From a virus (lineage: Duplodnaviria; Caudoviricetes), in IMG/VR virus record IMGVR_UViG_3300001868_000225, positions 1-52,879 of that record: a stretch of 52,879 nt of DNA. The stretch is one strand, 5' to 3'. The notes under the pieces are model-generated. The model did not search any database. It saw only the letters and a list, made by a program, of their open reading frames with translations, and was not told the origin of the DNA. A program made the position numbers and the translations under genes. Each line of letters begins with the position of its first letter. Within the stretch, counting starts at the first letter, position 1. This document shows positions 13,109 through 50,775 of the stretch, one piece after another.

Positions 13109-13179
13109 GGGATTTGTGATTTAAAGCCCCACCCCAACCCTCCCCAAAAGGGAGGGAGTTTGGCGCTATGGTTTATAAT

Positions 13180-13214
13180 CAAATTTGCTTTGTTTTTGCA
13201 ACGATAGAAAGGAC
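13180..13214 (-). promoter_or_regulatory. Late-promoter motif copy 3 (tail tip genes)
   Basis: GTCCTTT-N20-CAAATTTG. Confidence 0.65.
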
Positions 13215-13280
13215 AATATATTTACGATTTACTATTGTTCTACTTTCAGCGGATTGCTTCGTGCCTCGCAATGACGGTAA

Positions 13281-16200
13281 TTACTTCAGTCCGCCACCTG
13301 TGATTTTTTTATACTGTGTTTGTTTGCGTTCGAGCATTTCGATTGAGATTGCAAAGTCTTTTGAATCGAGTCGTTCGAGAATCGCACTAAGCCGGTCGAG
13401 TTGTTTGTCAGACATTCCGGATCCGGAAGAAGGAATGATGACAGGAGCCGTGCCACCTGAACCTGAAGTGGAAGAAGGTGAGGCATCTGATGAATAGCCA
13501 CCTGACTGTCTTCCAGCCGGAAGCATACCTGTTGCAGCTAACACATTGGGCAGATTAAGTTGGGCAATGGTACCGTTTTGCTGTGCCAGGTTAATGATGT
13601 CGAGTATAGGCTTAACGGTTGGATTTCGTACTGCAGGAGCTGAAGCAATAAATTCGTTTTTGTGGTAAATACCGTCTGGCTCGGAATCTGATCCATAATT
13701 GGAATAGCCACCTTCTTGCTTGCCTTCTAACATAGTTTGACGTTGAGAATTAGCAATAGCTAATTGTGCAACTCCGGTTGCTGTGAGTAATACGGCTGCA
13801 ATTGCTCCGCCAATAGGGCCAAGTTGGGCAAAACCTTGCATGATTGCAACAGCGGTATTTACAACTATTTCGGCGGTGGCCATCAGAAACTGTGCGGTTG
13901 CGTATTTCTTGTGTATTTGCGCTTTCTTTTCTTCGTTGTCGCCTGCTTTGGCAAGTTCGGCATCCATTAATGTCTGTACCAGATTTGAACCAAACGATAC
14001 AATTTGCTGAGCTTTCTGACCAAATTCTATGGCTTGATTTAACTTAGTCTGTTCATATTTCTTATTGATCTTCGCTTTAAGCTGTTGGTATTCTTCTTCA
14101 TTTTTGATTAAACCAGCCTTTTGCGCTTTGTCCAGTTCGGCAAGTGCATCGTCTCTTTCTTTTTTGGCATTTACTTCGTCTTCGCCATATTTCTTTTTCA
14201 GTTTGTCAAGCTCTTTTAACCGGTCTTCGTCGCCTTTCAGTGCGTTTTCGGCAAGGGCATTGATTTTCTCGGCAATTGCAGCGGCGGTATCGGCAGTATC
14301 TTCACCGTATTTTTGCTGTAACTCCAATTTTTTATTGAGGTATTCAATTTCTTTGGCAATAAGCAGCGCATTTGTTTCTTCCTCTGGCAAACCTTTGGCA
14401 AGGGCATCTTTTTTAACCTGTGCCAGTTCGTTTTTACCCTTATTTTCGAGATCATCAAGGTCTTTTTTGTACGATTTCTTTTTGTCTTCGGCAGTTTTCT
14501 TGTCGAGTTCTTCTTGAGCCTTTAATTGCTTATCAAGAATAGCCGCCATGGTATCGCTTGTATCGTCGCCATATTTTATCTGGAGTGCCAATTTTTTATT
14601 TAAAGCGTTCATCTCTTCCTCTTCCAAGGTTTTATTGTATTCTTCATCTGTGGCCTTAATATCAATCTGGTGTTGCTTAACCAGGTTCAATTCTTTACGG
14701 TTTGAAATATCGAGTGCTTTATAGGCATCTTCTTTAATCTTGTCTTTCGATTTATCTGCTTTAGAAGTCCCCAACTCTTTCAATGCATCAATTTCTTTCT
14801 GTTTTGCTTCAGCTTCCTTATTCCTGGCAGCAATATCCTTAGGTGTCGCGGCAATCCGTTCATTAATAATCTTCAATTCTTCTTCTTTGAGCTTAATCAG
14901 GTCCTGTTCAGGTTTAATATCAACAGGCTTTGGTGCGGAACCTCCTGGAATAATATATTTAATAGGGTTATTTTTCACGAAATCGCCAACAGTCTTTAGC
15001 GCTGACATGAATTTATACATCGCCCCAGTTTCTTTTTCAGCATAAGCAACTGATGCATCCGAATTCTTTTGCTCTTCCTGACCTAGTTCTTTTGTGATTA
15101 TTTTGATTTTTTCTTTTTGCTGATTAAGTTCGTCCATCTTTTTTTTCTGATTCGATGCAATAACTTCCTGTCGTTTTGCGGCTAATTCAGCTTGAGTTCC
15201 ACCAATAATAAAACCGTTCCATATTGATTGCCAAACTGTAGGATCAGCACCTTTCCCTGATGCCAAATCAAGTAACTCTTTTTCAATTTCAATTAGTTTT
15301 TCTTTTGCAGCTTGGGCTTTGGCGTTTTGCAAAATCGCTGTGGTATAATCATTAACCGCATCGGTAGCCTTTTGGGTATGGATAGATTCAAGCGTAAGAT
15401 TCCCCAGGTATGCCGGAGATAATTCATTTAACTGTTTGATTGCTTTCAAACGCTCTTCCTTTGAAAGTTTCTCATTTCTTGCAGTCTCAACTAGCGCTTC
15501 GAGATTTATTTTTTCTTCTACAATGCTTTTATGAGCTTCCAGGTTCACATCATTCACGGCTTTTTGGGCCTGTTGGGCAGCAGTAAGTCCACGTGAATAC
15601 ATAGTAAGTACGGTAATACCAGCAGCGAGTATGGCAAAAAATATTCCAATTGGGCTAATCCCGGTTTCAATTCTGAAAAGGCGCATAGCAATCGTAGCCT
15701 TTTCAACATTTCCGGTTAATAATGCTTGCGCGGCGGTTAATAATATAAGACCAGCTCGTTCAGCTCCAGTCCAGAATGCCTTTAATTTTGTTTGTACAAT
15801 ATTTAAAATATTTGCGGCATTTCTTCTTTCCTCCCATATTGCAGCCGCTTTAGCAGCTATCGTATATCCAATAACAGAAGCGGTTAGCGGTATTAGCACT
15901 CCTTTGGTTTCAATAAATAAATCAATTGCAATACTCAAGCCTTTAACAAAATAGGCTAATCCGCTAGTGCTGATGGTAAGAGCTGGGGTAAGCTTTTCGC
16001 CCAACTCAATGCTCATCAGGTTGAGCCGGTTCGATGCCTGGGCAAGTTTAGCTGCATGGGTATCGGTATTGACTGCAGCCTGCTCGAATGCCACATTGGT
16101 ACCGGTTACTGCCTTGGTGAAGTAATCAAACCGGTCGATACTGGTGGTTAAAATAGTTCCAACAGTAATGTTTCTTTTCCCGAAGACCTTAATCAATTCG

Positions 16201-21128: not shown

Positions 21129-21277
21129 TGGATATTTACAATTTATTTATTTACGATTTACGATTTAACCCCATTGCCTTGTTCGAAGCGTCATTGCGAC
21201 CGCGAGGAACGTGGCGGGAAGCAATCTATAATTCGTTGGGATTGCTTCGTCGTGCCTCCTCGCAATGACGGGTTGAA

Positions 21278-25244: not shown

Positions 25245-25558
25245 ATCATTACCTCCATACCATTAACATTAAAAAGCAGCTGGGCATGAACTGTGCGTAC
25301 CTCGCCACTTTCAGGATATTTAAAATTGAATGTGTCGTTTTTGAAATTTGATGATGTGCAAATCACACGGGCGTTGACGACCGTTCCGTCTTTTTCGCCA
25401 TAAACGATATCAAATGGCAACCGCTCGATACTACGGTCGAACGGATCCAGAAGATGCCGGAGAGCTTTGAGGAATATTTGTTTTAAAGCCCCACCCCGTC
25501 CCTCCCCAGAAGGGAGGGAGAAAGAACGGATGCTATTAATTGAACTATTATTGTCCAT
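25241..25558 (-). CDS. Phage hypothetical protein upstream of portal
   Basis: C-terminal VICTSS..TFNFKYPESGEVRTV..LFNVNGMEV; N-terminus contains a translated REP. Confidence 0.65.
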   Translation of the reverse strand: MDNNSSINSIRSFSLPSGEGRGGALKQIFLKALRHLLDPFDRSIERLPFDIVYGEKDGTVVNARVICTSSNFKNDTFNFKYPESGEVRTVHAQLLFNVNGMEVMI

Positions 25559-26079: not shown

Positions 26080-26844
26080 TTAAAATAAAGTGAGCTGCTG
26101 GACTTCGACAGGCTCAGTCACCGATGTTGCACTGAGCAAATCGTCGAGAAGATCCGTTTGTTCGGAAGTAACCGGAATTGTTATGGTTTTTGGTTTTTGC
26201 GTCACAGTTTCCGGCATTTTCAGCACAATTACGCTTTCGGCTTCGGTGATGGGTACAATGTAAGGACCTAATCCGGTTGGATGAATCTGTACCTGCCAGG
26301 CGCCGTAAAATTGGTTGCTGAGTGAGTTCATCCAGGCAACTTCGCCAAACATTCCATTCAGACACATATTGATCAGGCACATCATGGCACAGTTACGGTC
26401 GATATCGGCTCCGTAGAATGTGGCATTTCGGTTGATCTTCGCGGCTGCCATTAGAATTCGTCCACTTCCGCAGGCGCAATCCAGCACACGGGATCCAGTT
26501 TCGATTGGGTTGGTTATTCGTGCCATCATTTCACAGATCGGTTCCGGAGTGAAGAACTGGCCATTGTGTCCAAAACTGATATGCTCCATGAAGAAATCGC
26601 CAAACACATCACGTAATCCTTCGCCGTGGTTATCCATTTCACAGACCAGTGCGCCAAACGCTTCAGCCATCAGGTAGGCTTCGGGTTTATCGTACCGTCG
26701 CACTATTTCAAGGTACCGGTCTTCCATGGCCCCCAGCGATAGTGCACAAACTGCCATTTCTAAAAAGTCGCTGAATACGTTTGAGATGCTGTTCCGACGC
26801 GCTAACTGCTGCATGTACTGGGCAAAGCTTTTTTGTTTTTCCAT
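26080..26844 (-). CDS. HsdM/N6-adenine methyltransferase-like protein lacking motif IV
   Basis: GQFFTP and VLDCACGSGRIL (motif I) present; no NPPY/F; terminator at 26063-26081. Confidence 0.8.
   Translation of the reverse strand: MEKQKSFAQYMQQLARRNSISNVFSDFLEMAVCALSLGAMEDRYLEIVRRYDKPEAYLMAEAFGALVCEMDNHGEGLRDVFGDFFMEHISFGHNGQFFTPEPICEMMARITNPIETGSRVLDCACGSGRILMAAAKINRNATFYGADIDRNCAMMCLINMCLNGMFGEVAWMNSLSNQFYGAWQVQIHPTGLGPYIVPITEAESVIVLKMPETVTQKPKTITIPVTSEQTDLLDDLLSATSVTEPVEVQQLTLF
26103..26124. repeat. REP family 3 (CTTCGACAnGCTCAG and variants)
   Basis: Copies at ~17468, 26103, 26858, 29792, 46092, 49974, 50028 (inverted), 50277. Confidence 0.75.
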
Positions 26845-27056
26845 TAGAGAGCCCTCCCTTCGACTGCTTCGCGCTCAGGGAGCGTTGGAACGATTGTCAT
26901 TCTGCCATTCTCGACTGTGACATGTACGGTTTGGTGTGGCTGAAACCCGGCTGCGGCTAACCAGTTTCCTTTGAGTGTTAGTTTTGGCACCTGGTGGTAA
27001 TTGTCCTGGTACTTACCTTTTACATACTCGGGTTGAAGCTTAATTACTTTTGTCAT
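26844..27056 (-). CDS. SymE-like (AbrB-fold) protein
   Basis: VPKLTLKGNWLAAAGFQPHQTVHVTVENGRMTI matches the SymE P.L.L.G.WL..AGF signature; stop overlaps the MTase ATG. Confidence 0.8.
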   Translation of the reverse strand: MTKVIKLQPEYVKGKYQDNYHQVPKLTLKGNWLAAAGFQPHQTVHVTVENGRMTIVPTLPEREAVEGRAL

Positions 27057-27064
27057 TCGTTGCA

Positions 27065-27337
27065 CCACTGCCCTGTGGATTTATGTAGGCTGGCTCTCCT
27101 GTTAATTTTGAGCCAACTAAAATTGAGCAGACCGGAATTGGTCAAGGGCGAATGTCAGGTTTTTGCATGGGAAGGCAGGTATGTTGACAGATCCCGAAAC
27201 AAGTTCGGGATGACGGAGCAAAAAGGTGACCGAGTGTGAAGCAAGCTTTTCATTTCCCTTCCGGAAGGAGAAAAGCTCCCTTTACTTTTCCGGGATGCGA
27301 TCAATAACTTCGGGGCAAAATTGAGTGAGAGTAGTCT
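27065..27337 (-). promoter_or_regulatory. Long-hairpin leader element, family A copy 1
   Basis: Shares GTCAAGGGCGAATGTCA, GTGACC..GAAGC and CCCTTTACTTTTCCGG..GCGATCAATAACTTC with 33810 and 34649; REP-like hairpin inserted at 27188-27216. Confidence 0.75.
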
Positions 27338-27406
27338 TTCTATGATTTACGATTAGCCTATTTACTATTTACAATTTGGGCAAAAAAAAGAGGCGTGAGC
27401 CTCTTC

Positions 27407-27754
27407 TTAATTATCAATTACAAATGATGTCATATTTGGCGCTGATCTAAGTTTTACTTTATGAATCATCCACGGTTGAAGTAGTTTTGGATAATCCCTA
27501 TGAAATAAAACAACTTCCATTTGATAATTTGGAATGACTTCGATGTCACGAAAATAAAATTTTCCTTCAGGAGATCTATAGGGCCATATTCCTAAAGCTC
27601 TTTTGTGACCTTCAACCAATAGATCAATAAAAACCTGTGGGGCAGAAATTTTAATATGGCTTCTGTCTATGTAAGTTAATTGTTTCAATTCAGGATCACA
27701 ATCTTTAAAGATGCGTTCAACCAATTCAAACGCCTGTTTTTCCAAAGTTTCCAT
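27407..27754 (-). CDS. Hypothetical protein
   Basis: 115-aa ORF, last of the 29240-27407 operon; terminator at 27381-27405. Confidence 0.65.
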   Translation of the reverse strand: METLEKQAFELVERIFKDCDPELKQLTYIDRSHIKISAPQVFIDLLVEGHKRALGIWPYRSPEGKFYFRDIEVIPNYQMEVVLFHRDYPKLLQPWMIHKVKLRSAPNMTSFVIDN

Positions 27755-27772
27755 AACTCAAATTTTAAATTA

Positions 27773-28027
27773 TTAAGGATAAACGTCTGAACCGATAAGG
27801 GTTTGAATCATACGCTGTGACCCTGGTAAATCCTGCATCATTGCTATAACTTCTTCTTTTGATAGATATGCTTTGAATTTGAAATCACAGGATTCAACTT
27901 CATTAAATGGTGTTTTCATCTTATACGAAAGAAACTCCACATCAAACTTTGTAATAAAACCGATAATGTCAGCATGACATTCAGCCGTGAATGAGAATTT
28001 TTGTAGTTTAATATCCATCTTCTTCAA
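27773..28027 (-). CDS. Hypothetical protein
   Basis: FSFTAECHADI...MIQTL; tight operon packing. Confidence 0.6.
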   Translation of the reverse strand: MKKMDIKLQKFSFTAECHADIIGFITKFDVEFLSYKMKTPFNEVESCDFKFKAYLSKEEVIAMMQDLPGSQRMIQTLIGSDVYP

Positions 28028-28036
28028 TTTTTATGG

Positions 28037-28282
28037 TTAAACTGAATTCAAGGCCTTACCTAGCAATTTCGATGCTTGAATAAATTCATCGACAGTAAAC
28101 CCGCAATTCTGAAATCGTTTTTGAGCATTAACGATGCCATTACTGATTTCTTCGTCGGACATATCGGATAAATCAAAGCCCATGAATGCAAATTCAGACC
28201 TGATACTTTTTAAGATCGACTTTACTTCTGATGGTTTACCTGGGAACAACCAATTCCAAAATGTTTTAAATGGATTTTTCAT
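28037..28282 (-). CDS. Hypothetical protein (MKNPFKTFWNWL start)
   Basis: Operon packing; N-terminus shared with 28569-28877. Confidence 0.65.
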   Translation of the reverse strand: MKNPFKTFWNWLFPGKPSEVKSILKSIRSEFAFMGFDLSDMSDEEISNGIVNAQKRFQNCGFTVDEFIQASKLLGKALNSV

Positions 28283-28285
28283 CTT

Positions 28286-28615
28286 TTACTTAAATAATTT
28301 GAGCCTCTTAGTTGTTTTTTTGAGCGAAATTTCAATTTGTTCAAAGGCTTTGCTTTGGCCAATTGAGATAAAATAATCATTTATTTTTTTGAAGGATTCT
28401 GCAACTGCAACCGTGAGTTGTTGTATTGCTTTATCGCGTTTCCATGCCGCAAAACCGACTGAGCGCTCAAATATTTTTTTAAATCTTTGAGCATCTTCCG
28501 GAGTGAGTGTTTCGAATGGTGGATCTAACGGCTGTTTGAATTGTTCGTTATAGTATTGGGCAAGTTGGTTATTTTCCATCTTCAGCAATTTTAGATATAA
28601 ACTCATTTCCTTCAA
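28286..28615 (-). CDS. Hypothetical protein
   Basis: Helical ORF; true start may be MENNQL near 28579. Confidence 0.6.
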   Translation of the reverse strand: MKEMSLYLKLLKMENNQLAQYYNEQFKQPLDPPFETLTPEDAQRFKKIFERSVGFAAWKRDKAIQQLTVAVAESFKKINDYFISIGQSKAFEQIEISLKKTTKRLKLFK

Positions 28616-28877
28616 ATAATGTAACTGCTACCCGTGAAGGATCAAACATTCCCTCCATAGCAGCAACAACACATTTGTAACTTTTTTCTTTAACTATATG
28701 TGTTTGCTCAGCTTCTTTTGAGTTTTTGTCGAAACCTGAATATACTTTAATTATATTAATCATTGGCTGAAGTTCTTCAACGGTATATGGTGTTTTAATT
28801 GCCAGTTCTTCGGCAAGGCATGATGGATAATTTTTGTTTAATAACCAATTCCAATATGTTTTAAATGGATTTTTCAT
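28569..28877 (-). CDS. Hypothetical protein (MKNPFKTYWNWL start)
   Basis: Operon packing; paralogous N-terminus. Confidence 0.6.
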   Translation of the reverse strand: MKNPFKTYWNWLLNKNYPSCLAEELAIKTPYTVEELQPMINIIKVYSGFDKNSKEAEQTHIVKEKSYKCVVAAMEGMFDPSRVAVTLFEGNEFISKIAEDGK

Positions 28878-29046
28878 CTTCTTCGATTTTAATTTTTAAT
28901 CCGAGTGGTTTTAGTAATGCTGAAAGTTTATCCAGGTAAAAAGCTACACGGCGTTTGCCATGGTTTTTAGGAAGGCCTGCGGCACGCTCGTAAGCTGGCC
29001 AGCCTTTGAACTTTTGCTTGATGTAGGTTTCTATGAGGTTGAGCAT
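28861..29046 (-). CDS. Small basic protein, possibly HTH regulator
   Basis: AYERAAGLP...LDKLSALLKPLGLKIKI resembles XRE-type HTH. Confidence 0.5.
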   Translation of the reverse strand: MLNLIETYIKQKFKGWPAYERAAGLPKNHGKRRVAFYLDKLSALLKPLGLKIKIEEDEKSI

Positions 29047-29060
29047 AGTGGTTTTTATTC

Positions 29061-29240
29061 TTATCCAATTTCATACCTAATAATTAATTCACCGACAATG
29101 TCTTCTATTCCAAGTTTTTCAGAACCATCATTACCAATAAACCACCATTTACCATCTTCATCATACTCAGCAATAATCCATTCATTGTCTCGTTTAATCC
29201 AAATCCAGTAGTATCCTGGGATTCTCTTTAATTTTTTCAT
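29061..29240 (-). CDS. 59-aa Trp-rich hypothetical protein
   Basis: MKKLKRIPGYYWIW..EWIIAEY..GKWWFIG. Confidence 0.6.
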   Translation of the reverse strand: MKKLKRIPGYYWIWIKRDNEWIIAEYDEDGKWWFIGNDGSEKLGIEDIVGELIIRYEIG

Positions 29241-29260
29241 GTTCAAATCTACAAAATTCT

Positions 29261-29296
29261 TTTCAAATGTTCGCATATATATGCGAACATTTGAAA
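29261..29296. repeat. Perfect 36-bp palindrome
   Basis: TTTCAAATGTTCGCATATATATGCGAACATTTGAAA equals its own reverse complement. Confidence 0.9.
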
Positions 29297-29311
29297 TATT
29301 TATTAGCAGCA

Positions 29312-29485
29312 TCAACTTGCGATGCTGCTAACAAATTGATTGTACTCGAAGCTGATCAACTCCTGATCGAGAAGTTCTGCAGCTCCTTCGAAGTAAACCG
29401 AATCTAAATAAGTAACGAAGGCTTCCCATAGGTTCTGTCGGTTTTCCTGATCTACTGCGGCTGATTTTAATTTGTAAGTTTTCAT
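29312..29485 (-). CDS. 57-aa acidic protein absent from the ORF track
   Basis: MKTYKLKSAAVDQENRQNLWEAFVTYLDSVYFEGAAELLDQELISFEYNQFVSSIAS; leader hairpin upstream and hairpin TTAGCAGCATC/GATGCTGCTAA over the stop. Confidence 0.65.
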   Translation of the reverse strand: MKTYKLKSAAVDQENRQNLWEAFVTYLDSVYFEGAAELLDQELISFEYNQFVSSIAS

Positions 29486-29491
29486 ACTGTA

Positions 29492-29658
29492 GTTTTGTTA
29501 AAAATTATATGCAGTTTTTCAGGGTCAAAATCAGGGGTAAACAAAGAGGAACTGGAATAACGGATCGAAGTGAGTATATGCCGGGAAAATCCTTGTTTAG
29601 GTATAATCCTTAGCCCTGGATATTGACCGTTTCTTAGCGTGTAATTTTGCTATAAAAC
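29492..29658 (-). promoter_or_regulatory. Long-hairpin leader element, family B copy 1
   Basis: AAAATTATATGC/GCGTGTAATTTT, GGTCAAAATC/GATATTGACC, TAAACAA/TTGTTTA; core GAGGAACTGGAATA..ATATGCCGGGAAAATCC shared with copy 2. Confidence 0.7.
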
Positions 29659-29855
29659 CAGGGATGAAGGCGAAGGCAGTGTTCAGTCGCAGTGTTCAGG
29701 TATAGGTACCAGGGAAAGTGTTCAGTATTCAGTCGCAGTTGGCAGAGGTAGAGTGGAGTATGAGATTGCTTCGTACCTCGCAATGACGGCCTTTCGACAG
29801 GTTCGGGGATCAGGAGCGACATAAAAAAAAGCCTTTCGGCTTTCTTTGGTTTCAG

Positions 29856-30170
29856 TTAAAAGGGAAAGTCATCGTTAGCCGGTTCTTTCTTCGATTTCTT
29901 TTTGGAAGGTTTTTGTGCCTTTTTTTGTTCTTCAGGACCATAAGGCTGTATTGGGATGGCTGCCGAAACTTTGGTCTGATAATAACAGGTGTGGGTGCGT
30001 CCGAATTTGTCGTCTTGTTTCAGTTTAGCCACCTCAAATGAGAGGTACTTTACTCCGTTCTTTTCGAACACTGCTTTTTCGAGGCCTTCAACTGGTAATA
30101 CAATTCTCACGATGTCAAGGTTTTCTACCTGAGTTCCTTTTCCGATGTAATGTTTTTCAAAAGTTGTCAT
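29856..30170 (-). CDS. Hypothetical protein with OB-fold/SSB-like features
   Basis: MTTFEKHYIGKG..KYLSFEVAKLKQDDKFGRTHTCY; ends DDFPF like an SSB tail; terminator at 29823-29844. Confidence 0.7.
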   Translation of the reverse strand: MTTFEKHYIGKGTQVENLDIVRIVLPVEGLEKAVFEKNGVKYLSFEVAKLKQDDKFGRTHTCYYQTKVSAAIPIQPYGPEEQKKAQKPSKKKSKKEPANDDFPF

Positions 30171-30350
30171 AATATTGAATTTAAGGTTATAAAAAAAATT
30201 TATACCGGGTGAGAATATTCTGAATGAGGGTGGCAATGGAGGAACTGGAATACCGGAACGTAGCGAGGATATGCCGGGAAAATCCATTGACGGGTTCCTT
30301 CCTTGAAAGAATACACCTTTGTAGATAATTTTTGACTAACGCTCAATATT
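30171..30350 (-). promoter_or_regulatory. Long-hairpin leader element, family B copy 2
   Basis: AATATTGA/TCAATATT, GGTG/CACC, TATTCT/AGAATA, CAATGGA/TCCATTG; base abuts ATG 30170. Confidence 0.7.
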
Positions 30351-30478
30351 CTGTCAACCGTAGAAAATTTGCACCGGCGAAAGGTTACCTAGGTAAACCG
30401 GGAGATTGGGATAGTATTGTTGCCAGGTGAAGCCCTGATCGTGTTCGGTAGAATATCGGTGAAGTAACCATTGAGGCT

Positions 30479-30681
30479 GTGCTAACGAAATGAAGATGAC
30501 CGGCAACCCACGTTAATCGGACCATGGTGGCGACATCAACAGCATGGTGGCCGGAACAAAAACACAAAAGTAACGAACAAGCATCCCGAAAGATGGCCTT
30601 ACGAACTGAAACCAAATGCCGAAAGGCTTTTAGGGGAGCACGGTGCATGGGGCAAAGGGCATGGAGCTTCAGTGTTAGCGC
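30479..30681 (+). other. attC-like hairpin, left boundary of ibrAB cassette
   Basis: GTGCTAAC...GTTAGCGC ends; inner pairings TGAAG/CTTCA, ATGACC/GGGCAT, CCCACG/CATGGG. Confidence 0.5.
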
Positions 30682-30864
30682 CTATTTAACTGGCAGCGTG
30701 ACAATCCAGTCGGCGACAATATTAATGAGCGTTTCAATTTTTTCTTTGTGAACATCTGACACGCGATCACGGGTAATTGACGAGCGATCACTTGCAAGGG
30801 TGCGGCTCAATTCAGCCCAATTTAGTAAGGCTTTTGCTTTAATTTTAGCTTCTTCTTGGTTCAT
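30682..30864 (-). CDS. Small HTH-like protein
   Basis: LLNWAELSRTLASDRSSI; last gene of the ibrAB operon. Confidence 0.6.
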   Translation of the reverse strand: MNQEEAKIKAKALLNWAELSRTLASDRSSITRDRVSDVHKEKIETLINIVADWIVTLPVK

Positions 30865-31379
30865 TTTTCAACCTCCCATGCTTCAGAAAATTCTTCATCC
30901 ATAAATAATTCTGCAAGTCCTGTTATTTGCTTAAGCCTTAATACTTCATCTGCATCCATACCAAGTTCTTTAGCAATTTTTTCATCATTCCAATTTCGGC
31001 GACTTAATTCAACGACTATGTCGCTCATCGCTTGTATTTGATGTTTTCCCCTTGCCCTATTGTGTCTAATAGTTGAAGCAATCCTGTCGCCCTTTTCAGT
31101 TCTGTCATTATTTATAATTACACACGGAAGATGGGTAAATCCAAGTTTTTTACCTACCAAATGGCGATGAAATCCATCAATAACTTCATATCTATCTTCA
31201 ATTTTCCACACAACAATTGGTTGTGTATATCCATCCTCTTGAATTGATAATTCAAGTAATTTCATTTCTGGCGGAGCTACCTTATTGGGATTATAATCAT
31301 TCCCTTGTATTAATTCAATAGATATCCACTTAACGAATGAAACTGGATGTGTTTGTGTCCATTTTAAAATATTCTCCAT
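30861..31379 (-). CDS. ibrB: IbrB/YbdM-like ParB/Srx-domain protein
   Basis: NDYNPNKVAPPEMKLL..GYTQPIV..IDGFHR..STIRHNRARGKH..LGMDADEVLRLKQITG. Confidence 0.88.
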   Translation of the reverse strand: MENILKWTQTHPVSFVKWISIELIQGNDYNPNKVAPPEMKLLELSIQEDGYTQPIVVWKIEDRYEVIDGFHRHLVGKKLGFTHLPCVIINNDRTEKGDRIASTIRHNRARGKHQIQAMSDIVVELSRRNWNDEKIAKELGMDADEVLRLKQITGLAELFMDEEFSEAWEVEK

Positions 31380-32566
31380 TGTTGCCTCCTATTTTTCATT
31401 ACTTTCAAATATCTTTCGTATGATTCAGCTTTTGTCTGAGTAAAAGAAAGCCCTTTACACCAATAATCATTTCTTAATAATGCCTTGCAAATTCTTCTCC
31501 ATGATGGAACTTTTTTATGAGCTTCTTCGTCCAGTGTTGCTTCGTCAGGTATATCATTCGAATAACCTCTATCTATATACCATTTTATAAAAATGCTTAT
31601 TTTGTTTTCAAAATGTAGTTTTGTCTTTTGTGGCATAGAATTTAACAATAGCATAGCAAATGATTTCCATGTATGTCCATCTGGCTTTTGAATTTTTAAC
31701 ATACCATTAATATTACCGTGTTCGCCATTAAATAAAGCCCCTGAATTCGCTCCATTAACCCTGGCTACAATTTTACCCCATGTTTCAGGCTCAATAATAT
31801 GAAACAACCACAATCCACGACGTTGATCATCTCCATAAGGTTGGCAAATTCTTTGCTGATGAATAGAAACCCCTGCCTTATACATTAAGTCGTAAAGCTT
31901 ATTATATGGCTTTAAAAACCTGCCATTATATCGCCAAATATCCTGAGTTTTCCAATCATAAATAGGATACGCATTATAAACTGATTCACCGCACCAAGTA
32001 GTCCAAGATTTATCTTCAAACTTTGATTTACTCATTGCTAGTGTTCTATATCTGTTTAGGCTTTCGTCTGATCTAATACCAACAAAACAAGCTGTTAACT
32101 TCCCTTTTGAATACCAATCTCCAAATTTTGGAACAAATTCTTCAAACTCCATTCCACTATGAAAAAATGGAAAGTCTTCATTTGTTTTAACACCATTTGG
32201 CATTTCACGAATCCATATTTCTTTCTTTGTTCTATCCCATGCCAACCACTTTGGTTGGAACGTAGAAACTGCATTTCTAAGAGCAATCTCAACACAACAC
32301 CAAAAAGGCTCTATATTATCAGCATACATTGCAAACATTTCTTTTATATGCTCGATAGTTATTTTATATTGTCCTTCAAGGTCAACAAATAAAACACCAA
32401 CCATTCTATTTCTTTTTTTTGCTTCGTCCATAACTAAATGAAGCATAACAGAACTATCCTTGCCGCCTGAAAATGAAACATATATTTTTGGAAACGAATC
32501 AAAAATATACGAAATCCTTTGTTTTGCAGCCATTAATACATCAATTCCAAGCGATCTTTTAGGCAT
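31364..32566 (-). CDS. ibrA: IbrA/YbdN-like PAPS-reductase-domain protein (DUF3440)
   Basis: PP-loop SFSGGKDS; GIRSDESLNR; YPIYDW; QRICQPYG; PSWRRICK.LLRND.WCK.LSF. Confidence 0.9.
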   Translation of the reverse strand: MPKRSLGIDVLMAAKQRISYIFDSFPKIYVSFSGGKDSSVMLHLVMDEAKKRNRMVGVLFVDLEGQYKITIEHIKEMFAMYADNIEPFWCCVEIALRNAVSTFQPKWLAWDRTKKEIWIREMPNGVKTNEDFPFFHSGMEFEEFVPKFGDWYSKGKLTACFVGIRSDESLNRYRTLAMSKSKFEDKSWTTWCGESVYNAYPIYDWKTQDIWRYNGRFLKPYNKLYDLMYKAGVSIHQQRICQPYGDDQRRGLWLFHIIEPETWGKIVARVNGANSGALFNGEHGNINGMLKIQKPDGHTWKSFAMLLLNSMPQKTKLHFENKISIFIKWYIDRGYSNDIPDEATLDEEAHKKVPSWRRICKALLRNDYWCKGLSFTQTKAESYERYLKVMKNRRQQWRIF

Positions 32567-32946
32567 TTGTTAACTTGTTCTTTATTAATTTTAATAATAT
32601 CACCGTTTTCATTTATAAAACAAAAGTATCTATCTGTTTTAGACCATGAAATGGGTTCTTTAACTTCATAAATTTTGTTAGTTTCAAGAATATAATAAGC
32701 AAATATTCCTCTACTTCCTTTGCTGTTAGAATGTCTGTAATCTTTTTTGTATCTAATAAAATTCCTTTCAAAATTGAACTTTGGATGTAACCCTATAATT
32801 TCAGCCACAAAGAAACTTAATGGAATATTTCCGAATATATTTTCTGTCAATTGTTCTCCAATCATTGTAGTTGAACCGGATTTCCAAAATTTAAGAAATT
32901 GAGTGTCATTGTCGCCAATGCACTCAATTTTTAAAGTCGCTTTCAT
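32533..32946 (-). CDS. Hypothetical protein upstream of ibrA
   Basis: Co-oriented, overlaps the ibrA start; DYRHSNSKGSRG motif. Confidence 0.7.
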   Translation of the reverse strand: MKATLKIECIGDNDTQFLKFWKSGSTTMIGEQLTENIFGNIPLSFFVAEIIGLHPKFNFERNFIRYKKDYRHSNSKGSRGIFAYYILETNKIYEVKEPISWSKTDRYFCFINENGDIIKINKEQVNKCLKDRLELMY

Positions 32947-32947
32947 T

Positions 32948-33160
32948 TTAAAATTCACCATTTTGAGCTTTAAAATCTTCTATTTGGCGTTCAAAACTAA
33001 AAACTTGGTTTTGTGCTTGTTGTTTTGCATTTTCAAGTTTTTCTAATTCATTGTAATAAAACCATTCTTCTGCGCTTAATACTTCTGGCTTTGAAATAAC
33101 TATTTGTCCTTCATTTTCAATAGCTTCAATTACTGATTTGATTTCGTTGTAAGTTTTCAT
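32948..33160 (-). CDS. 70-aa acidic/coiled-coil protein
   Basis: First gene of the ibrAB operon; start MKTYNEIK. Confidence 0.6.
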   Translation of the reverse strand: MKTYNEIKSVIEAIENEGQIVISKPEVLSAEEWFYYNELEKLENAKQQAQNQVFSFERQIEDFKAQNGEF

Positions 33161-33196
33161 TTTGTGGTTTTTTAGTATTTTTGTATACACCGAAGA

Positions 33197-33255
33197 TACA
33201 ACATTTGTTGTATTACTTTCAAATGTTTTAACACTTATTTACAATAATCGTTGTA
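33197..33255. promoter_or_regulatory. Twin palindromic operators TACAA-N6-TTGTA of the ibrAB operon
   Basis: TACAACATTTGTTGTA (33197-33212) and TACAATAATCGTTGTA (33240-33255). Confidence 0.6.
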
Positions 33256-33294
33256 ATTTATTTTGATTCTAAATAAGCAATGGACAAAAACAGG

Positions 33295-33390
33295 CGTTAA
33301 TACGTGCTATACAAAAGCCGGGGCTCGGTGCTTCGTTGACAAAGAATTATTTCAAAATCCCGGCCTTCTCATAGCACCATCCGGTTGACG
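33295..33390 (+). other. attC-like hairpin, right boundary of ibrAB cassette
   Basis: CGTTAAT...GTTGACG ends; GTGCTAT/ATAGCAC and GCCGGG/CCCGGC inner stems. Confidence 0.55.
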
Positions 33391-33422
33391 AACAAAAAAA
33401 GGGGCGTTAGCCCCTCTTTAAG

Positions 33423-33800
33423 TCAAAGGTTGATCAGTTCTTCAACGTCGTGCACTTTCACATCCAGTGTCCGTTTCATTTCGTCGATCACTGAGCTGAT
33501 CACTGCCGAGTTTGAGGTTTTGAACTCGTTGCCGTTAGCATCCCTCAAACTGATGACAGAACTCAGCGAATCGGCCCCGATCTGGAAGGTCTGCAACTTC
33601 CGGCGCGAATCGTTCAATGTTTTCCACCTGTCAATCAGCATCGACAAATCTTCCACCCGCTGGATCCGTTCTTCGAGGGTCATTTTACGAGCTGCTTCTT
33701 CAACTACGTCTTTCACAACTGTCATAGTTGGAATAACTTCTACCACTTCAACAACTTCAGCAACATTGACTGCTTTCTCTGCATTATTTGATTTACCCAT
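33423..33800 (-). CDS. Hypothetical coiled-coil protein
   Basis: 125 aa; family A leader upstream; terminator AGGGGC-gtta-GCCCCT at 33394-33416. Confidence 0.75.
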   Translation of the reverse strand: MGKSNNAEKAVNVAEVVEVVEVIPTMTVVKDVVEEAARKMTLEERIQRVEDLSMLIDRWKTLNDSRRKLQTFQIGADSLSSVISLRDANGNEFKTSNSAVISSVIDEMKRTLDVKVHDVEELINL

Positions 33801-33809
33801 AACATTTTG

Positions 33810-34078
33810 CCGCTGCCCTGCGGACTTATTTTGGCATCTGGCTCAGCCGGTTAAAATTAAATTACGGGTAGTATCCATTGAGCCGGGCGGAATCTAGTCA
33901 AGGGCGAATGTCAAGTTTTAACGGAGACCGGAGCCGGAAGACCGAAGACGGAAGTTAAAAGTGACCGAGTGCGAAGCAAGGCTTAGTTCTGACTAAACTG
34001 CTAAACCAAACCACTAAACCTCCCTTTACTTTTCCGGACGGCGATCAATAACTTCATCCGGAATTTGAGTGTAACAAG
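33810..34078 (-). promoter_or_regulatory. Long-hairpin leader element, family A copy 2
   Basis: Same conserved blocks as copies 1 and 3, with compensatory changes. Confidence 0.75.
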
Positions 34079-34153
34079 AATTTCTCTGTCAAACTCCGGA
34101 AAGCCTGGTGACTTTTAAAGAGCGACCAAAAAAAGGGGCGATAGCCCCTTGAA

Positions 34154-34639
34154 TTACTGAATGAAATTTTCCTGATTGCCAAACTTCGATTCAACCTTTT
34201 CCGATCCCCAGGCATCACGCATAGCATCCATCGACATCAATTTGCCCGACTTCTTATGATACTCCCCTTTGTGCCAGTACCAGGCAGCTTTCGGATGTGA
34301 GAAGCGGTAACCTTCACTTTTCAGCGTTTCCCGGAGTGCGAATGTGTTTCCGGTAATCCAGATCCACGAGCCAATAAGTTCGATAACAATCCCTGGTAAG
34401 CAGATGATCCGGTCCAGCCGTTCACGCATTTCTTCTGAAACCTGCTGCTCATATTCCTTCCGTGCTTCCGAAAAATCAGTATTGCTGTTGATCAGCTTTC
34501 TTGAAAGCCGGTCATACAGATCGTTGATCATCTGCATAGTTGCAGTATCACCACCTTTATCCGGATGATACAGAAAAGCAAGGCGACGGTATTCCTTGCG
34601 CAATTCATCCAACGTCTTAACATCCTCGAAAAATTTCAT
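34154..34639 (-). CDS. Truncated J-domain (DnaJ-like) protein
   Basis: LDELRKEYRRLAFLYHPDKGGD with HPD motif; C-terminal IELIGSWIWITG..LKSEGYRF..AWYWH domain; terminator at 34128-34150. Confidence 0.85.
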   Translation of the reverse strand: MKFFEDVKTLDELRKEYRRLAFLYHPDKGGDTATMQMINDLYDRLSRKLINSNTDFSEARKEYEQQVSEEMRERLDRIICLPGIVIELIGSWIWITGNTFALRETLKSEGYRFSHPKAAWYWHKGEYHKKSGKLMSMDAMRDAWGSEKVESKFGNQENFIQ

Positions 34640-34648
34640 GTGAGTTCA

Positions 34649-34867
34649 CCGCTGCCCTGCGGATTTATGTAGGCTGGCTCTCCTGTTAATTTTGAGCCAA
34701 CTACCCATTGAGCAGACCGGATTCTAGTCAAGGGCGAATGTCAGTTTCGAGGCACGCAGAAAGTGACCAAGCGCGAAGCGTTGTTTATGCAAATCACATC
34801 CGGCAAACACAAACCCTTTACTTTTCCGGGATGCGATCAATAACTTCGGGGCAAAATTGTAGGAGAG
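34649..34867 (-). promoter_or_regulatory. Long-hairpin leader element, family A copy 3
   Basis: CTCTCCTG/TAGGAGAG, AATTTTG/CAAAATT, ATTGA/TCAAT, CCGGA/TCCGG, AAGGG/CCCTT. Confidence 0.75.
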
Positions 34868-35445
34868 ATAATACCTCTCTGCCTGAATAGGCGCTTAGTT
34901 GGCATTCTCTTTTGGTTCTTTTCTCTGATGCCTTGCCTGCAAATCCAGAGAAAAGAACTGCGCAAAATTTTCAGGCCGTAGGTGGTCCCTGAAAATTCAG
35001 ACGTTTGTATAACGGATGGCGCAAGGTTCTTTTTGCCCGCTTTTTCTTACAAGAAAAAGCGTAGAGGAAATCTTGTGCTTGGAATCATTCTAAATAATAT
35101 TGATTTTCCCATCAAAAAAACATCAAAAACCTAAAAATCAAGCAATCGGATTCAAAAGGGATATGCAATTCTTCCTTTTGTCTGAAAAAGACCCCGAACC
35201 GCCCTGTTCGTCTTTTGTGCTCACAAGGTCAAAAATGGCGTTATATGCTGAAAGTTTCATATATTATGTATAGTGGATACTCTATCCAAAAACCCATCGC
35301 ACGGACGAAGGTAGTGCGATACCGAATGTGTGTGAAAGCAAAAAACAGGTGAATGCGAAGCACATTCTCCTGTTGCGGGTAGTGGAACAATCATTCAGAA
35401 TTGAATGAAAGGATGGAATGAAATTTTGAATGTTTGTGTATCGGG

Positions 35446-37107
35446 CTATTGGTTAAACACCGTTGACATTGGTAATGATGTGACTTGTCTTGGAAAGAAG
35501 TTCAATCCGATAAACAGATCGTCCCAGGCATCAGTTCCATCCGTGCGGAGTTCGAGTGGATCATCTTCGGTCTCTCCAAGTTTCTCACCGGCTTTGTCCT
35601 TTTCGAAACCTGTACGACCCATCCGGATCCCGCACATCTCCATGGATGGAAGGAGTGCAGGATTGTTTGCCCGGTTAAACTTTGGGAACAAATACTTGCG
35701 TCCCTTCAGTGCATCATCTATAACTTGATGCTTTACCTTATGTGTCCAGGTGTTGCCTATGTAGACAGGTTCAACGTTCCATCCACGTCGCGACAGTTCT
35801 TCGACAACTATCTCCTGGAAGTTGGGAGCGTCTTCATCAGCATAAGCGCCATCGAGTGCAGTGGAGTTATAATAGTAGATCACTTCCTTGTTACGGATAT
35901 ACTGATAGTAGTCGCACCAGTTGCGACACAGTTCCCTAAGCTTATGGTTGAACTTTACAAACTTACTCGATAGGGTCTTCATCACCGGCTCGAGTCGTTG
36001 TCCTGTTATGACCCAGTTGATGTTGGCATTGTAGTCGAATGCAATGGCAAGCGGTACCGATGGATCTATATCTCCATCTTTAAGGCAATTGTCCTCTGAT
36101 ATTCGATCAAGGTCAAGCGTTCCTTTTACTGTTCTGAGGTTATCAATATAGGTCGTATTGTCTGCATCGTAATAGTGTATCTCTGGTTGAAGATTCGGAT
36201 AGAACCCATCAGTTAACTTCCTGATTCGTTTATTCATAATCGATGTCTGGAATATGACCGGGGGTAAAATCAACTTCTGTCGTTTAATGTAGTCAACTCC
36301 AACAATTTCAAGGTTTTCAATGGTATCATATTCTTTATACAGAAATGCGTTTTTTCTCAGGAAGAATAGTTCTTCCCTTAAGTGTTGTATTTGCCGTATG
36401 GCATTTACCGGCATTTCGGGCATAGCGCTATACTTATCTCTCAGGTAATTGATGTGGGAAATTGTATTTTCAATGGCCATGATGAGTTCCGGATCCATAT
36501 TTTTTTCCTGATCAAGTATCCACTGACCTTCCTTGCTGGTTGGCATATCTGATACCATGGTCAATCCTTTCCATTTATGGCATTTTTCAAATATAGGATC
36601 GGTACCCGACATGGTTGGAACTACCTCTTCAAATAGTTTTTCCTTATTGATCGACCTGCCTTCATCTATTTTTCCCCAGTCAGTAGTCAACGAGTTTGCC
36701 GAAAACTTTACATCCTGGCTCAGCAAATAAACACAGGTACCATTATAGAAATGAATGGCCTGATCCCAGCTGACCGGTTCAACTGTTGGAAGTGCAAAGT
36801 TCATCCATTTGGGTGCTTTTCGACCAACAAAATAATGAACATCGCGCTGATATCCGTATCGTTTCAGGAAAGTAAGGGTTGCCGGCAGTGTTTTACCAAG
36901 TAACTGTTTGAAGTTGCGCTGGTAAAGAAAACCAGATGATGCGGGCATATTCTGAATATCGTATAATAAATCAGGTCCTTCTACACCATCAGACTTTCCG
37001 AAACGACGGGATCCAACAATACATTTGCTGTTTGGGCTTATTTCGTGCACATACATTTGTGCTTTATTGAAATAGGCCGGTTTACATGCTGATCTACTTA
37101 ATATCAT
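35446..37107 (-). CDS. terL: Terminase large subunit
   Basis: Walker A GSRRFGKS; Walker B GKIDEG; nuclease acidic residues AFDYN and TDGTDAWDD. Confidence 0.88.
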   Translation of the reverse strand: MILSRSACKPAYFNKAQMYVHEISPNSKCIVGSRRFGKSDGVEGPDLLYDIQNMPASSGFLYQRNFKQLLGKTLPATLTFLKRYGYQRDVHYFVGRKAPKWMNFALPTVEPVSWDQAIHFYNGTCVYLLSQDVKFSANSLTTDWGKIDEGRSINKEKLFEEVVPTMSGTDPIFEKCHKWKGLTMVSDMPTSKEGQWILDQEKNMDPELIMAIENTISHINYLRDKYSAMPEMPVNAIRQIQHLREELFFLRKNAFLYKEYDTIENLEIVGVDYIKRQKLILPPVIFQTSIMNKRIRKLTDGFYPNLQPEIHYYDADNTTYIDNLRTVKGTLDLDRISEDNCLKDGDIDPSVPLAIAFDYNANINWVITGQRLEPVMKTLSSKFVKFNHKLRELCRNWCDYYQYIRNKEVIYYYNSTALDGAYADEDAPNFQEIVVEELSRRGWNVEPVYIGNTWTHKVKHQVIDDALKGRKYLFPKFNRANNPALLPSMEMCGIRMGRTGFEKDKAGEKLGETEDDPLELRTDGTDAWDDLFIGLNFFPRQVTSLPMSTVFNQ

Positions 37108-50100: not shown

Positions 50101-50775
50101 CCTTGGTTTCGATCCGTTAATTGGGCCAATAATTCCGGCAAGCTCAAGCTGATCAATGATTCTTCCGGCACGATTGTACCCAATCGAAAACTTTTTCTGA
50201 AGTGCTGATGCTAAACATTTTTGACTAAATATAACAAGTTCTGCAGCGGCATATAATAACGAATCGAGTTCGACGACTTCGACAGGCTCAGCCACCGGCG
50301 CTTCTATTTTTGGCTTTACTGGTTCGGTCCATGTTGACGAAAAAGGATCAAACCCACGATCGGCAAGATACCTGATTGCTTCAGGACTGGCTTTTAACTG
50401 ATCGGCAAAGAATTCAGCCGCTTTTTGGCAGGCAATCCGGAGCGCTTCTTTGTGCTTGTATTCTTCGTCGTTAAAGTTCGATTTATCGGCTATCCATGTA
50501 AAATCAAGATTCAGCTTTTTGGCTCCAATTTCAACGGCTTCTTTGAAGCCTACGCCCTGGCTTTCCTGCAAAAAGCTGATGGCATCGCCACCCTTGCCGC
50601 AGCCATAACATTTGTAAATTCCACGGGCTGGAGTAACGGTGAACGAAGGTGTTTTTTCGTTGTGAAACGGGCAACATGCCCTGTATTTATTGCCGATTGT
50701 CTTCAATTCAACGTAATTGCCTATAACCTCGGCAATATCTTCGTTGATGCGGTCAATGACTTCGCGAACATCCAT
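47170..50775 (-). CDS. DnaG-type primase fused to P-loop helicase-like domain, with inserted FtsK-gamma domain
   Basis: CHC2 finger CPFHNEKTPSF..CYGC; FRNRIMFPI, KYLNT, VEG..DV, YDGD.AG, DPD toprim motifs; GPKGAGKN and VLDEY Walker A/B; DDLPF tail. Confidence 0.92.
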   Translation of the reverse strand: MDVREVIDRINEDIAEVIGNYVELKTIGNKYRACCPFHNEKTPSFTVTPARGIYKCYGCGKGGDAISFLQESQGVGFKEAVEIGAKKLNLDFTWIADKSNFNDEEYKHKEALRIACQKAAEFFADQLKASPEAIRYLADRGFDPFSSTWTEPVKPKIEAPVAEPVEVVELDSLLYAAAELVIFSQKCLASALQKKFSIGYNRAGRIIDQLELAGIIGPINGSKPRNVLISDLDVDSDQLKALLATSTSSVADAPIIEAPSPEREAVEGDNNILPFSIGFAPDGNVLLKWAKENAIGLNLLIEADLIKSKDGREYDTFRNRIMFPICSKSGKVVGFTGRTLSTDKAIPKYLNTGDTPIYCKGNELFALNLARNEIKKEDKAYLVEGNFDVTRMHQIGITNTLAPCGTALTVDQAKLLKQYTNKVTLIYDGDSAGQKAMAKNAEILIREQFHVSVIILPEKEDPDTAFKTIEAFEKANQEQPDYIIWKTINVSEKSQNPAYKSDLIKEISFLVTRYDEPSKHEVYLEAISKIIGPKKLWQDHFKTWLADKAPVETKKSRAIPANVSLDEYYERGFYVDHNCMYFQDSKGSPKQQSNFTMTPLFHIESTVNAKRLYEVKNNHGTVRVIEIPQRDLVSISAFKVRIESLGNFLWTGSETDLNRLKAWLYEKTNSAKEVAQMGWNKDGIYVWGNGIFNGKFTETDSYGIAMNNGENYYIPSASRIYSGEENLFEFERKFIHVEGNISLREYMKKFTKVFGDNGKIALSFYFASLFRDLIIRKFSKYPMLNLFGPKGAGKNACAESLLHFFGRLPRIPNLHNTTKPALADHVATSSNALCVLDEYRNDLEMEKREFLKGLWDGTGRTRMNMDKDKKKETTSVDQGVIVCGQQMATADIALFSRFVVLSFTQTEFSKEEIRLYEELEEINKRGLTHITHQILKHRAYFKENYSKKVDQVSIKLEELLKGQPVETRVFNNWLMIMAAYATLDDEIELTWDQTETMQLAVTLMLTQNGEMKKNDDLGHFWKIVSYLASSNLIFEDGDYKLIYAKEAGYTKMENGKWLTQKIQWINPKNLFYLTTSRVFSMYKSQCLREGDKPLPESTIEYYLRNSKAFLFETKKESFKKIDPRTGAQEKNELGKNKRTSTTAFVFDYDLLNIFIETGGDELAEEDHDHNAPPPVEKQANINFGNKTDPDPEDPDKDDLPF

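Follow-up and report, generated by a model that had tools for sequence, protein, structure and literature searches.

We identified a conserved non-coding element that precedes three genes in a 52.9-kb provirus record of a tailed phage (Caudoviricetes; IMG/VR record IMGVR_UViG_3300001868_000225, positions 1 to 52,879, referred to here as the window). Comparison of these copies with their relatives in Bacteroidota suggests that the element is probably a counterpart of the Frpo/ssi single-stranded DNA (ssDNA) promoters, joined to a short 5' untranslated region (UTR) that carries a hairpin with an ARGGCA loop. Nearly all genes of the window are on the minus strand. "Sense" is used here for that strand, and the template strand of the genes served by the element is the plus strand.

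The proposed mechanism involves a long imperfect hairpin, comprising the 5' two-thirds of the element, that would form in the template strand. While this strand is single-stranded, its gene-distal arm (arm Y) would pair with arm X and create a sigma-A promoter aimed along arm X into the gene. The hairpin would mimic an open promoter complex, with the -33 box and spacer in duplex, the arms separating between -12 and -11, the -7 box lying in a bubble, and a helix (P0) resuming at approximately +1. As for Frpo/ssi, transcription of the gene would be limited to the period in which the element is single-stranded and would cease once the duplex has been made. The transcript, starting approximately 54 nt before the ATG, would carry the hairpin NNNN-ARGGCA-NNNN. 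We speculate that the three-branch apex of the structure (a GCGAAGC-type mini-hairpin and an ATTCG junction) may exclude SSB or recruit primase.

Distribution and covariation of the element

The family was collected with exact scans for the 17-mer TGACATTCGCCCTTGAC, which occurs three times in the window (27141-27157, 33897-33913, and 34727-34743, all minus strand). With up to three mismatches, 0.13 occurrences are expected by chance, and three copies were reached in none of 100 shuffles. A preliminary description of the window, made from its sequence alone, had reported three copies of the element on this strand and the blocks shared between them, and both TGACATTCGCCCTTGAC and CCGGAAAAGTAAAGGG are indeed found exactly three times. 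The scans returned 15 stretches in viral contigs, 108 in genome contigs, and at least 125 in metagenome contigs. These loci hold 249 instances of the motif, the unrelated ones being coding sequence of other phyla. At least 154 copies, including the three in the window, have the other blocks and enough flanking sequence, and these come from metagenome-assembled genomes (MAGs) of Bacteroidota and from viral contigs. The 154 copies comprise 130 distinct cores, and removal of pairs with at least 92% identity left 96 non-redundant copies. The alignment used throughout (A2) contains the 80 of these 96 that have a recognizable loop and complete ends, with copy 3 of the window as its first row. Because the copies were picked by the 17-mer, its columns are fixed and are uninformative on covariation. 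Judged by their record titles, the genomes are mostly MAGs of Prolixibacteraceae and other Bacteroidales. Of 151 sampled Prolixibacteraceae genomes, 15 contain the 17-mer (one mismatch or none), a patchy occurrence that fits the cargo of mobile elements. Three public sequencing runs, one of DNA and two labeled RNA-Seq but flagged as probable DNA, yielded contig pieces of relatives only.

Read 5' to 3' on the sense strand, the element begins with a conserved flank (ACTCTCACTCAATTTT), a variable pentamer, and CAAAGTTA, followed by the 5' arm of the long stem P1 (ATTGA, GCA or GCCG, CCGGA, and GTCAAGGG). The apex consists of a hairpin of free sequence (P2), a mini-hairpin with a 3-nt loop (P2b), the sequence CTCG, and a stem (P3) that combines GTCA..TGAC with a distal part of free sequence, in which inserted hairpins may occur. 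The REP-like hairpin noted earlier in one apical arm is present in copy 1 (27191-27211). An invariant junction (ATTCG) connects the apex to the 3' arm of P1, which is followed by a variable stretch of 12-14 nt, an AT-rich segment pairing back to the 5' flank (P0), a short GGC/GCC helix, and an A-rich run. The element closes with the hairpin NNNN-ARGGCA-NNNN, 8-10 nt, and the ATG. In one sublineage (locus L263, at G002:C1:1647983, 1654255, and 1655933, and locus L272) the junction ATTCG is changed to ATGCA jointly with a change of CTCG to TTTG, which points to junction contacts beyond the named helices.

The named structure is paired in 87.4% of 3490 cells of the alignment. Both sides of a pair are changed in 163 cells, compared with 41.7 ± 4.8 in column shuffles; none of 500 shuffles reached 163, and slid controls give at most 24. 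The structure is thus under selection, as had been proposed. The change between GCA/TGC and GCC/GGC seen in the long stem of the window copies is real and recurs in the family, where 49 of the 80 copies have A-U and 26 have C-G at the P1 pair 53-387 and a further compensatory change is found at 55-386. Similar exchanges occur in P2b (pair 209-217: AU 46, GC 33), in the start-proximal hairpin (pair 476-485: GC 52, AU 14, CG 7, UA 4), and in P0 (pair 26-417: UA 48, AU 13), a helix that is 84% paired. Among the variants of the 17-mer, the change of 219-365 from C-G to T-A in 7 of 10 variant copies suggests one further pair.

Two pairings of the ARGGCA loop were considered and rejected. For pairing with an upstream UGCC or GCCU, the GCC covaries instead with the GGC of CCGGC (GGT/ACC, AGC/GCT). 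For pairing with the variable pentamer after CAATTTT, which appears in RNA folds of copies 1 and 3, the pentamer is near-random across the family. An alternative pairing of TGGCTC with GAGCC had been described as competing with the long stem. This pairing exists, but GGCTC lies inside the long stem in copy 2 only; in copies 1 and 3 it lies outside, and there it competes with the basal extension of the hairpin.

Promoter boxes, proposed fold-back geometry, and predicted 5' UTR

The Bacteroidota sigma-A consensus, as described in PMC9723704, consists of TTG at -33 and TAnnTTTG at -7, with the -7 box spanning -12 to -5. Across the family, arm Y carries TTG-N20/21-TAnnTTTG on the template strand. 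The eight columns of the -7 box contain, among the 80 copies, T in 80, A in 80, a free position (A57/C22/T1), a second free position (C70/A8/T2), T in 79, T in 80, T in 65 (C in 14), and G in 77, and the four positions after the box are near-random. A perfect TAnnTTTG is found in 61 of 80 copies. The -33 box reads TTG in 61 and TTT in 19, and 56 of 61 have a spacer of 20-21 nt. On the sense strand, a single TAnnTTTG was found among 65 copies of approximately 450 nt each, a length that includes 150 nt of extra upstream flank. A sigma-70-type interpretation of the arms (TTGACT-N17-TAACTT) was abandoned for the Bacteroidota consensus, and a sigma-70 scan gave nothing above background at the elements (31 sites compared with 23.8 ± 5.0 in shuffles).

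In the window these features lie on the plus strand. Copy 1 has the -33 region CCCTTTAC at 27278-27285 and the -7 box TAACTTCG at 27305-27312. Copy 2 has CCCTTTAC at 34022-34029 and TAACTTCA at 34049-34056. Arm Y of copy 3 (34814-34848), which would be the non-template arm of the fold-back promoter, consists of the -33 region CCCTTTAC, the spacer, and the -7 box TAACTTCG at 34841-34848, with one mismatch to the consensus. It pairs with arm X (34707-34743), the putative template arm, which holds the complement of the 17-mer at 34727-34743.

In duplex DNA a promoter with these boxes is directed away from the gene, whereas in the template-strand fold-back the geometry would turn it into the gene. 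P1 ends with the T:A pair at -12, which is Watson-Crick in 77 of 80 copies. The A at -11 stands opposite a non-complementary base, and a roughly symmetric bubble extends from -11 to -1, its box side conserved and its facing side variable and of similar length. When the 80 template strands are folded as DNA at minimum energy, pairing frequencies are 0.81-0.98 in the -33 region and 0.11-0.40 at the TAnn positions. Pairing restarts with P0 approximately five bases past the box, where +1 is expected; in copy 3 the X side of P0 (34688-34694, plus strand) pairs with 34852-34858. The modeled fold of the template strand thus resembles an open promoter complex. From this geometry, transcription is predicted to start on the minus strand near 34693 in copy 3 and near 27109 in copy 1, giving a leader of approximately 54 nt.

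A second TAnnTTTG (TAATTTTG) is present on the template strand in 40 of 65 copies. It lies inside P0, at columns 413-420 of the alignment and at 34687-34694 and 27103-27110 in the window (plus strand). In one typical sequence inspected by eye the nearest TTG is 17 nt upstream, so this box is probably not part of a promoter. We have treated it as a probable by-product of the complementarity of P0.

On the template strand, 67 of 80 copies have GAA as the loop of P2b and 4 have GGA. The mini-hairpin is GCGAAGC in copy 3 (34773-34779) and copy 2 (33971-33977) and GTGAAGC in copy 1 (27236-27242), all plus strand. DNA mini-hairpins of the GCGAAGC type are described as extraordinarily stable and as occurring at the G4 origin, ssiA, and the N4 promoters (PMC13037366). 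Folded as DNA, the plus strands of copies 1, 2, and 3 have z-scores of -3.61, -1.64, and -2.36. The RNA folding energies of copies 1-3 are not unusual (z-scores of -1.68, 0.12, and -0.54), and the structural support accordingly comes from comparison rather than from thermodynamics. The antisense strand of the whole element folds better in 63 of 80 copies, a preference given no weight because G+U-rich strands fold better by composition.

The start-proximal hairpins have the sequences given in the preliminary description. On the minus strand, copy 1 has CCAC-AGGGCA-GTGG at 27065-27078, 8 nt before the ATG, and CCGC-AGGGCA-GCGG is found 9 nt before the ATG in both copy 2 (33810-33823) and copy 3 (34649-34662). 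Of 52 A[AG]GGCA sites on both strands of the window, only these three lie in a fully paired hairpin. In the family, 59 of 80 copies have an AGGGCA loop and the other 21 have AAGGCA, with 20 stem variants and fully paired stems in 78. The claim of a conserved loop on covarying stems at a fixed distance from the start codon therefore extends to the family, with an ATG 8-10 nt past the hairpin in 76 of 78. The most likely role of the hairpin is in translation or mRNA stability, and its fixed distance from the ATG suggests translation.

Associated genes and host elements

The window contains an integrase gene beside a tRNA, lysis genes (holin and lysin), and genes for a tape measure protein, a head protease, and a Zn-ribbon/Toprim primase (47170-50775). 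Each copy of the element is approximately 240-290 nt long and, in the minus-strand reading, begins after the end of the preceding gene. Copy 1 (27057-27343) ends at the ATG (27054-27056) of a gene for a 70-aa SymE/AbrB-like protein (26844-27056), which is followed by an N6 DNA methylase gene (26080-26844). Copy 2 (33801-34087) ends at the ATG (33798-33800) of a gene for a 125-aa coiled-coil protein of no known family (33423-33800), relatives of which sit behind 17 of 90 family members. Copy 3 (34640-34879), comprising the 5' flank, the long hairpin, and the 5' UTR, ends at the ATG (34637-34639) of a gene for a 161-aa DnaJ-domain protein (34154-34639). All of these features are on the minus strand.

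Two of the copies are preceded by intrinsic terminators on the same strand. The terminator of the gene upstream of copy 1 (27378-27404, a hairpin and T8) adjoins the element on its 5' side; the terminator scan itself listed this hairpin for the plus strand only, and the minus-strand call is based on the sequence and on repeat D14. The terminator after the DnaJ-domain gene (34133-34150), identified by the scan and by repeat D14, is 45 nt 5' of copy 2. The preliminary description had proposed an Rfam scan. At gathering thresholds the whole window gave one tRNA only and nothing on the elements, and with E-values up to 10 the region 26500-35500 gave only chance-level matches, none of which is on the elements.

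Among the 96 non-redundant copies, 90 have an open reading frame (ORF) behind the element. Its product is RadC in 37 of 90, a 125-152-aa protein of no known family in 17, a DnaJ-domain protein in 9, a 69-aa zinc-ribbon protein in 9, DUF6573 in 7, GP88 in 3, YspA/SLOG in 3, a SymE/AbrB-like protein in 2, and ArdC in 1, with 2 singletons. An N6 methylase gene is next in several cases. This gene content (RadC, ArdC, methylase, and similar) fits establishment and anti-defense cassettes. The copies occur in clusters of two to four co-oriented elements per genome. Five clusters outside the window were examined, and three of these are in conjugative transposons of the CTn type (relaxase, MobC, coupling protein, and TraG/J/M/N). 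In two of four cases with a relaxase gene on the same contig, the elements are 2-8 kb upstream of the mob operon. This position fits a template that is the transferred strand, provided that the relaxase operon enters last, as in F, which we have assumed. In locus L257 a Zn-ribbon/Toprim primase gene (13092-14000) adjoins an element that precedes radC.

In the window and in the two other clusters, which are in related prophages, the array of elements starts right after a conserved gene for a 553-570-aa protein with a Walker-A motif (RGTGKS/GKS), located at 35446-37107 in the window, 5576-7273 in L263, and 15567-17276 in L255. The three proteins share 28-30% mutual identity and have no Pfam or PHROG match; our guess is that they are terminase-like, perhaps the large terminase. 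In three host elements an ORF for a group II intron reverse transcriptase lies on the opposite strand approximately 0.7-0.8 kb upstream of a family element (L255:5360-6754, L258:4660-6384, and L261:11762-13486), and these introns may target the terminator or hairpin region.

Several other repeats and putative signals were observed in the window. Arrays of three to four GTAAAT repeats, approximately 9-11 nt apart, are found in the minus-strand sense at 4416-4445, 11450-11479, 21134-21163, and 27345-27374. Three of these arrays stop a few bases before the ATGs that start operons, at the holin gene, a 640-aa gene, and a 162-aa gene, and the fourth is between the terminator and copy 1. They may represent a phage-specific promoter or regulator site. 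Strict matches to TTG-N18-22-TAnnTTTG number four on the minus strand (ends at 5835, 18795, 20155, and 24834) and three on the plus strand (591, 32490, and 44822) in 52.9 kb, so few that most promoters of the prophage do not fit the host consensus. Two intergenic repeat families (D4/D6) consist of a hairpin-like CCGTCATTGCGAGG..CGAAGCAATC unit (11485-11516, 13247-13278, and 29759-29790, also at 12158 and 25676) and a CCCCACCCC..CCCTCCCC..GGGAGGG unit (3820-3869, 13109-13158, and 25471-25520). Tandem 99/111-nt repeats (D1, D2) at 6990-7704 lie within a 420-aa ORF (6768-8030) in the tail-fiber region. A perfect 16-bp palindromic hairpin at 29261-29296 is terminator-like on both strands.

Alternative readings and known systems

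A number of observations weigh against an ssDNA promoter or limit the evidence for it. The boxes of the window copies are imperfect (TAACTTCG twice and TAACTTCA once), and their -33 triplet is TTT rather than TTG. P0 is AT-rich, and its support is weaker since a slid control (+3) gives 30 double changes compared with 23 in the real register. In P1 the mismatch tally is 9 G·U to 20 A·C, and the unique 1x1 mismatches of P2 and P3 number 8 to 14. The pattern typical of RNA, in which G·U is tolerated and A·C avoided, is therefore not seen in P1-P3; however, this strand test is weak, as the mismatches are few, the sequences are related, and 8 compared with 14 is not significant. The GGCTC/GAGCC helix in the 3' part has sense-strand U·G wobbles in 32 and 24 of 80 copies, which would be A·C mismatches on the template strand; its 5' half is upstream of the predicted start, and the helix conflicts with P0. 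The multi-branch junction with its invariant unpaired bases is more like an RNA core than are the known Frpo hairpins. The promoter in its duplex form is expected to transcribe away from the gene, and such a transcript has no known use. The elements are co-oriented with the relaxase gene in all four same-contig cases, but this is weak evidence because most genes of these conjugative elements are on one strand. The other two of the five clusters outside the window are in prophages related to it, and since a tailed phage enters as duplex DNA, the source of a single-stranded template is not evident there.

The preliminary description had left open whether the element is a non-coding RNA leader or an ssDNA promoter. 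As a sense-RNA leader, the whole element would be transcribed as a long 5' UTR with a multi-branch fold that recognizes a protein or small molecule and controls translation by way of the start-proximal hairpin. It would then be the Bacteroidota analogue of the radC RNA motif, the genes of which are reportedly similar to those of the present family. The locked distance to the start codon, the covarying stems, the invariant unpaired junction bases, and the U·G wobbles of GGCTC/GAGCC are all consistent with this, and a phage promoter reading through the element might be provided by the GTAAAT array that precedes copy 1. However, only one of 65 sense strands has a sigma-A box, terminators lie directly upstream of copies 1 and 2, the mismatches show no G·U excess, and the elements match no Rfam family. 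A UUC triloop is no known stable RNA loop, while its complement GAA is a classic DNA triloop. The RNA folds of single copies are unremarkable and the antisense strand usually folds better, to which composition could contribute. An RNA leader also fails to account for the perfect host promoter of the opposite strand, in which the nn positions vary. In the case of the large 5' domain, the -33 and -7 boxes in the template-strand arm and the position of the -7 box in the bubble, together with the boxless sense strand, the mismatch pattern, and the triloop, favor the ssDNA promoter, and we consider the RNA leader unlikely.

The remaining explanations appear less plausible still. The boxes are canonical and would work in duplex DNA, where an ordinary promoter would yield a short RNA directed away from the gene and ending at the upstream bidirectional terminator, with the inverted repeat serving as an operator or in some other role. 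Such an RNA would begin with a conserved stretch of ~25 nt (the complement of ACTCTCACTCAATTT), and a terminator-like hairpin lies past the arm-Y promoter of copy 1 on the plus strand (27388-27405). Beyond the conserved flank, however, the sequence is not conserved, and neither the compensatory complementarity of the arms (53-387 and 55-386), nor the non-complementary stretch of equal length opposite the -7 box, nor the lock to the ATG is explained, which makes this reading improbable. The element could also be a priming (single-strand initiation) signal only, read by a DnaG-type primase, with the promoter boxes incidental. Mini-hairpins of the GCGAAGC type are described at the G4 origin and ssiA (PMC13037366), both types of host element encode Zn-ribbon/Toprim primases, and Frpo transcripts are described as also priming DNA synthesis (PMC12672017). 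A priming function could coexist with a promoter. On its own it is very improbable, as the position-by-position conservation of TAnnTTTG, in which nn and the discriminator vary freely, is that of a sigma-factor site, and one element per gene with tight coupling to the start codon would be unexpected. A selfish miniature repeat (MITE- or REP-like) without a regulatory role would fit the several copies per genome and the REP-like hairpins inserted apically. The preliminary description had raised the possibility of a known MITE placed at random relative to genes; instead, the copies have a single orientation and 76 of 78 end 8-10 nt before a co-oriented ATG, a placement that largely refutes this reading. 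In addition, the elements are confined to integrative conjugative elements (ICEs) and prophages, and to 15 of 151 Prolixibacteraceae genomes, show covariation and conserved promoter boxes, and have no terminal inverted repeats with target duplications that we could see. A selfish repeat is barely credible.

We return to the ssDNA promoter as the favored reading. Frpo is a stem-loop that rebuilds -35 and -10 boxes, is active on ssDNA only, and is found in several copies before anti-defense genes (PMC11541004; PMC9849209; PMC12672017). In these reports, the ssDNA promoters are those of enterobacterial plasmids only, with sigma-70 boxes only, and are considered probably not to be read by the sigma factors of distant hosts (PMC12672017). 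Like Frpo1 and Frpo2 of F and ssi1-3 and the class 2-3 elements of ColIb-P9 and pESBL as described there, the present element is a non-coding stem-loop in the range of ~200-330 nt that would restore both host sigma boxes. Multiple copies each precede an establishment or anti-defense operon (ssb, psiB, ardA, and methylase genes for Frpo/ssi), the genes would use the transferred strand as template, and the duplex is expected to be silent for the gene. In contrast to Frpo/ssi, the boxes are the Bacteroidota -33 TTG and -7 TAnnTTTG and not TTGACA and TATAAT, and the element has a three-branch apex, an invariant 17-mer, a GAA mini-hairpin, and an attached conserved 5' UTR hairpin. Its hosts also differ from those in these accounts, being integrative conjugative transposons and tailed prophages. 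Nor was sequence similarity to the Frpo/ssi family of plasmids seen: distant blastn searches with copy 3, rather than Frpo, as the query found no match among PLSDB plasmids (E-values up to 1e-3). Copy 3 likewise has no match among INPHARED phages. We found no published account of this element, or of ssDNA promoters in Bacteroidota, in the literature, supplements aside.

Other structured elements share some of these features. The radC RNA motif (RF01754) of Proteobacteria and the STAXI motif (RF01728) of Enterobacteriales (Weinberg et al. 2010, PMC2864571) are likewise conserved structured non-coding elements beside the DNA-handling or anti-restriction genes of mobile elements, and the authors of the STAXI motif themselves raised an ssDNA interpretation (PMC2864571). 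However, STAXI is a repeated pseudoknot with UUCG loops, whereas the present element is a single long hairpin. The RF01754 and RF01728 models have no match in the window at the gathering threshold, nor in 26500-35500 at E-values up to 10. The early promoters of phage N4 are described as a 5-bp stem with a 3-base GGA or GAA loop read by the virion RNA polymerase (PMC13037366). They are also DNA hairpin promoters in a tailed phage, and P2b alone resembles the N4 hairpin. However, N4 uses a phage single-subunit polymerase, while the present element has host sigma-A boxes and a hairpin larger by a factor of 10-20. Among the window ORFs that were scanned, none showed an RNA polymerase domain.

The prophage copies raise the possibility that tailed temperate phages of Bacteroidota, in addition to conjugative elements, use promoters that fire only on a single-stranded template, an extension that we regard as tentative and rather doubtful. 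Each anti-defense or establishment cassette would have its own hairpin that mimics an open complex and senses a transiently single-stranded genome, incoming or replicating. The ssDNA could arise from end resection of a headful-packaged genome, a candidate because the array begins right after the terminase-like gene, from supercoil-driven extrusion as at the N4 early promoters, or from rolling-circle replication. Primase might also enter at the hairpin, and the cassettes may move freely between ICEs and phages.

The comparison of 80 diverse aligned copies suggests that the logic of the enterobacterial ssDNA promoters has been rebuilt, with an unusually clear geometry, around the unusual -33/-7 promoter of Bacteroidota. 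If this purely comparative result is correct, it would provide a sequence rule for finding early-expressed anti-defense cassettes in Bacteroidota ICEs and approximately ten candidate families of establishment or anti-defense genes, several of them without known function. The occurrence of the element in prophages is the surprising part, and it would raise the new question of why tailed prophages keep such promoters.

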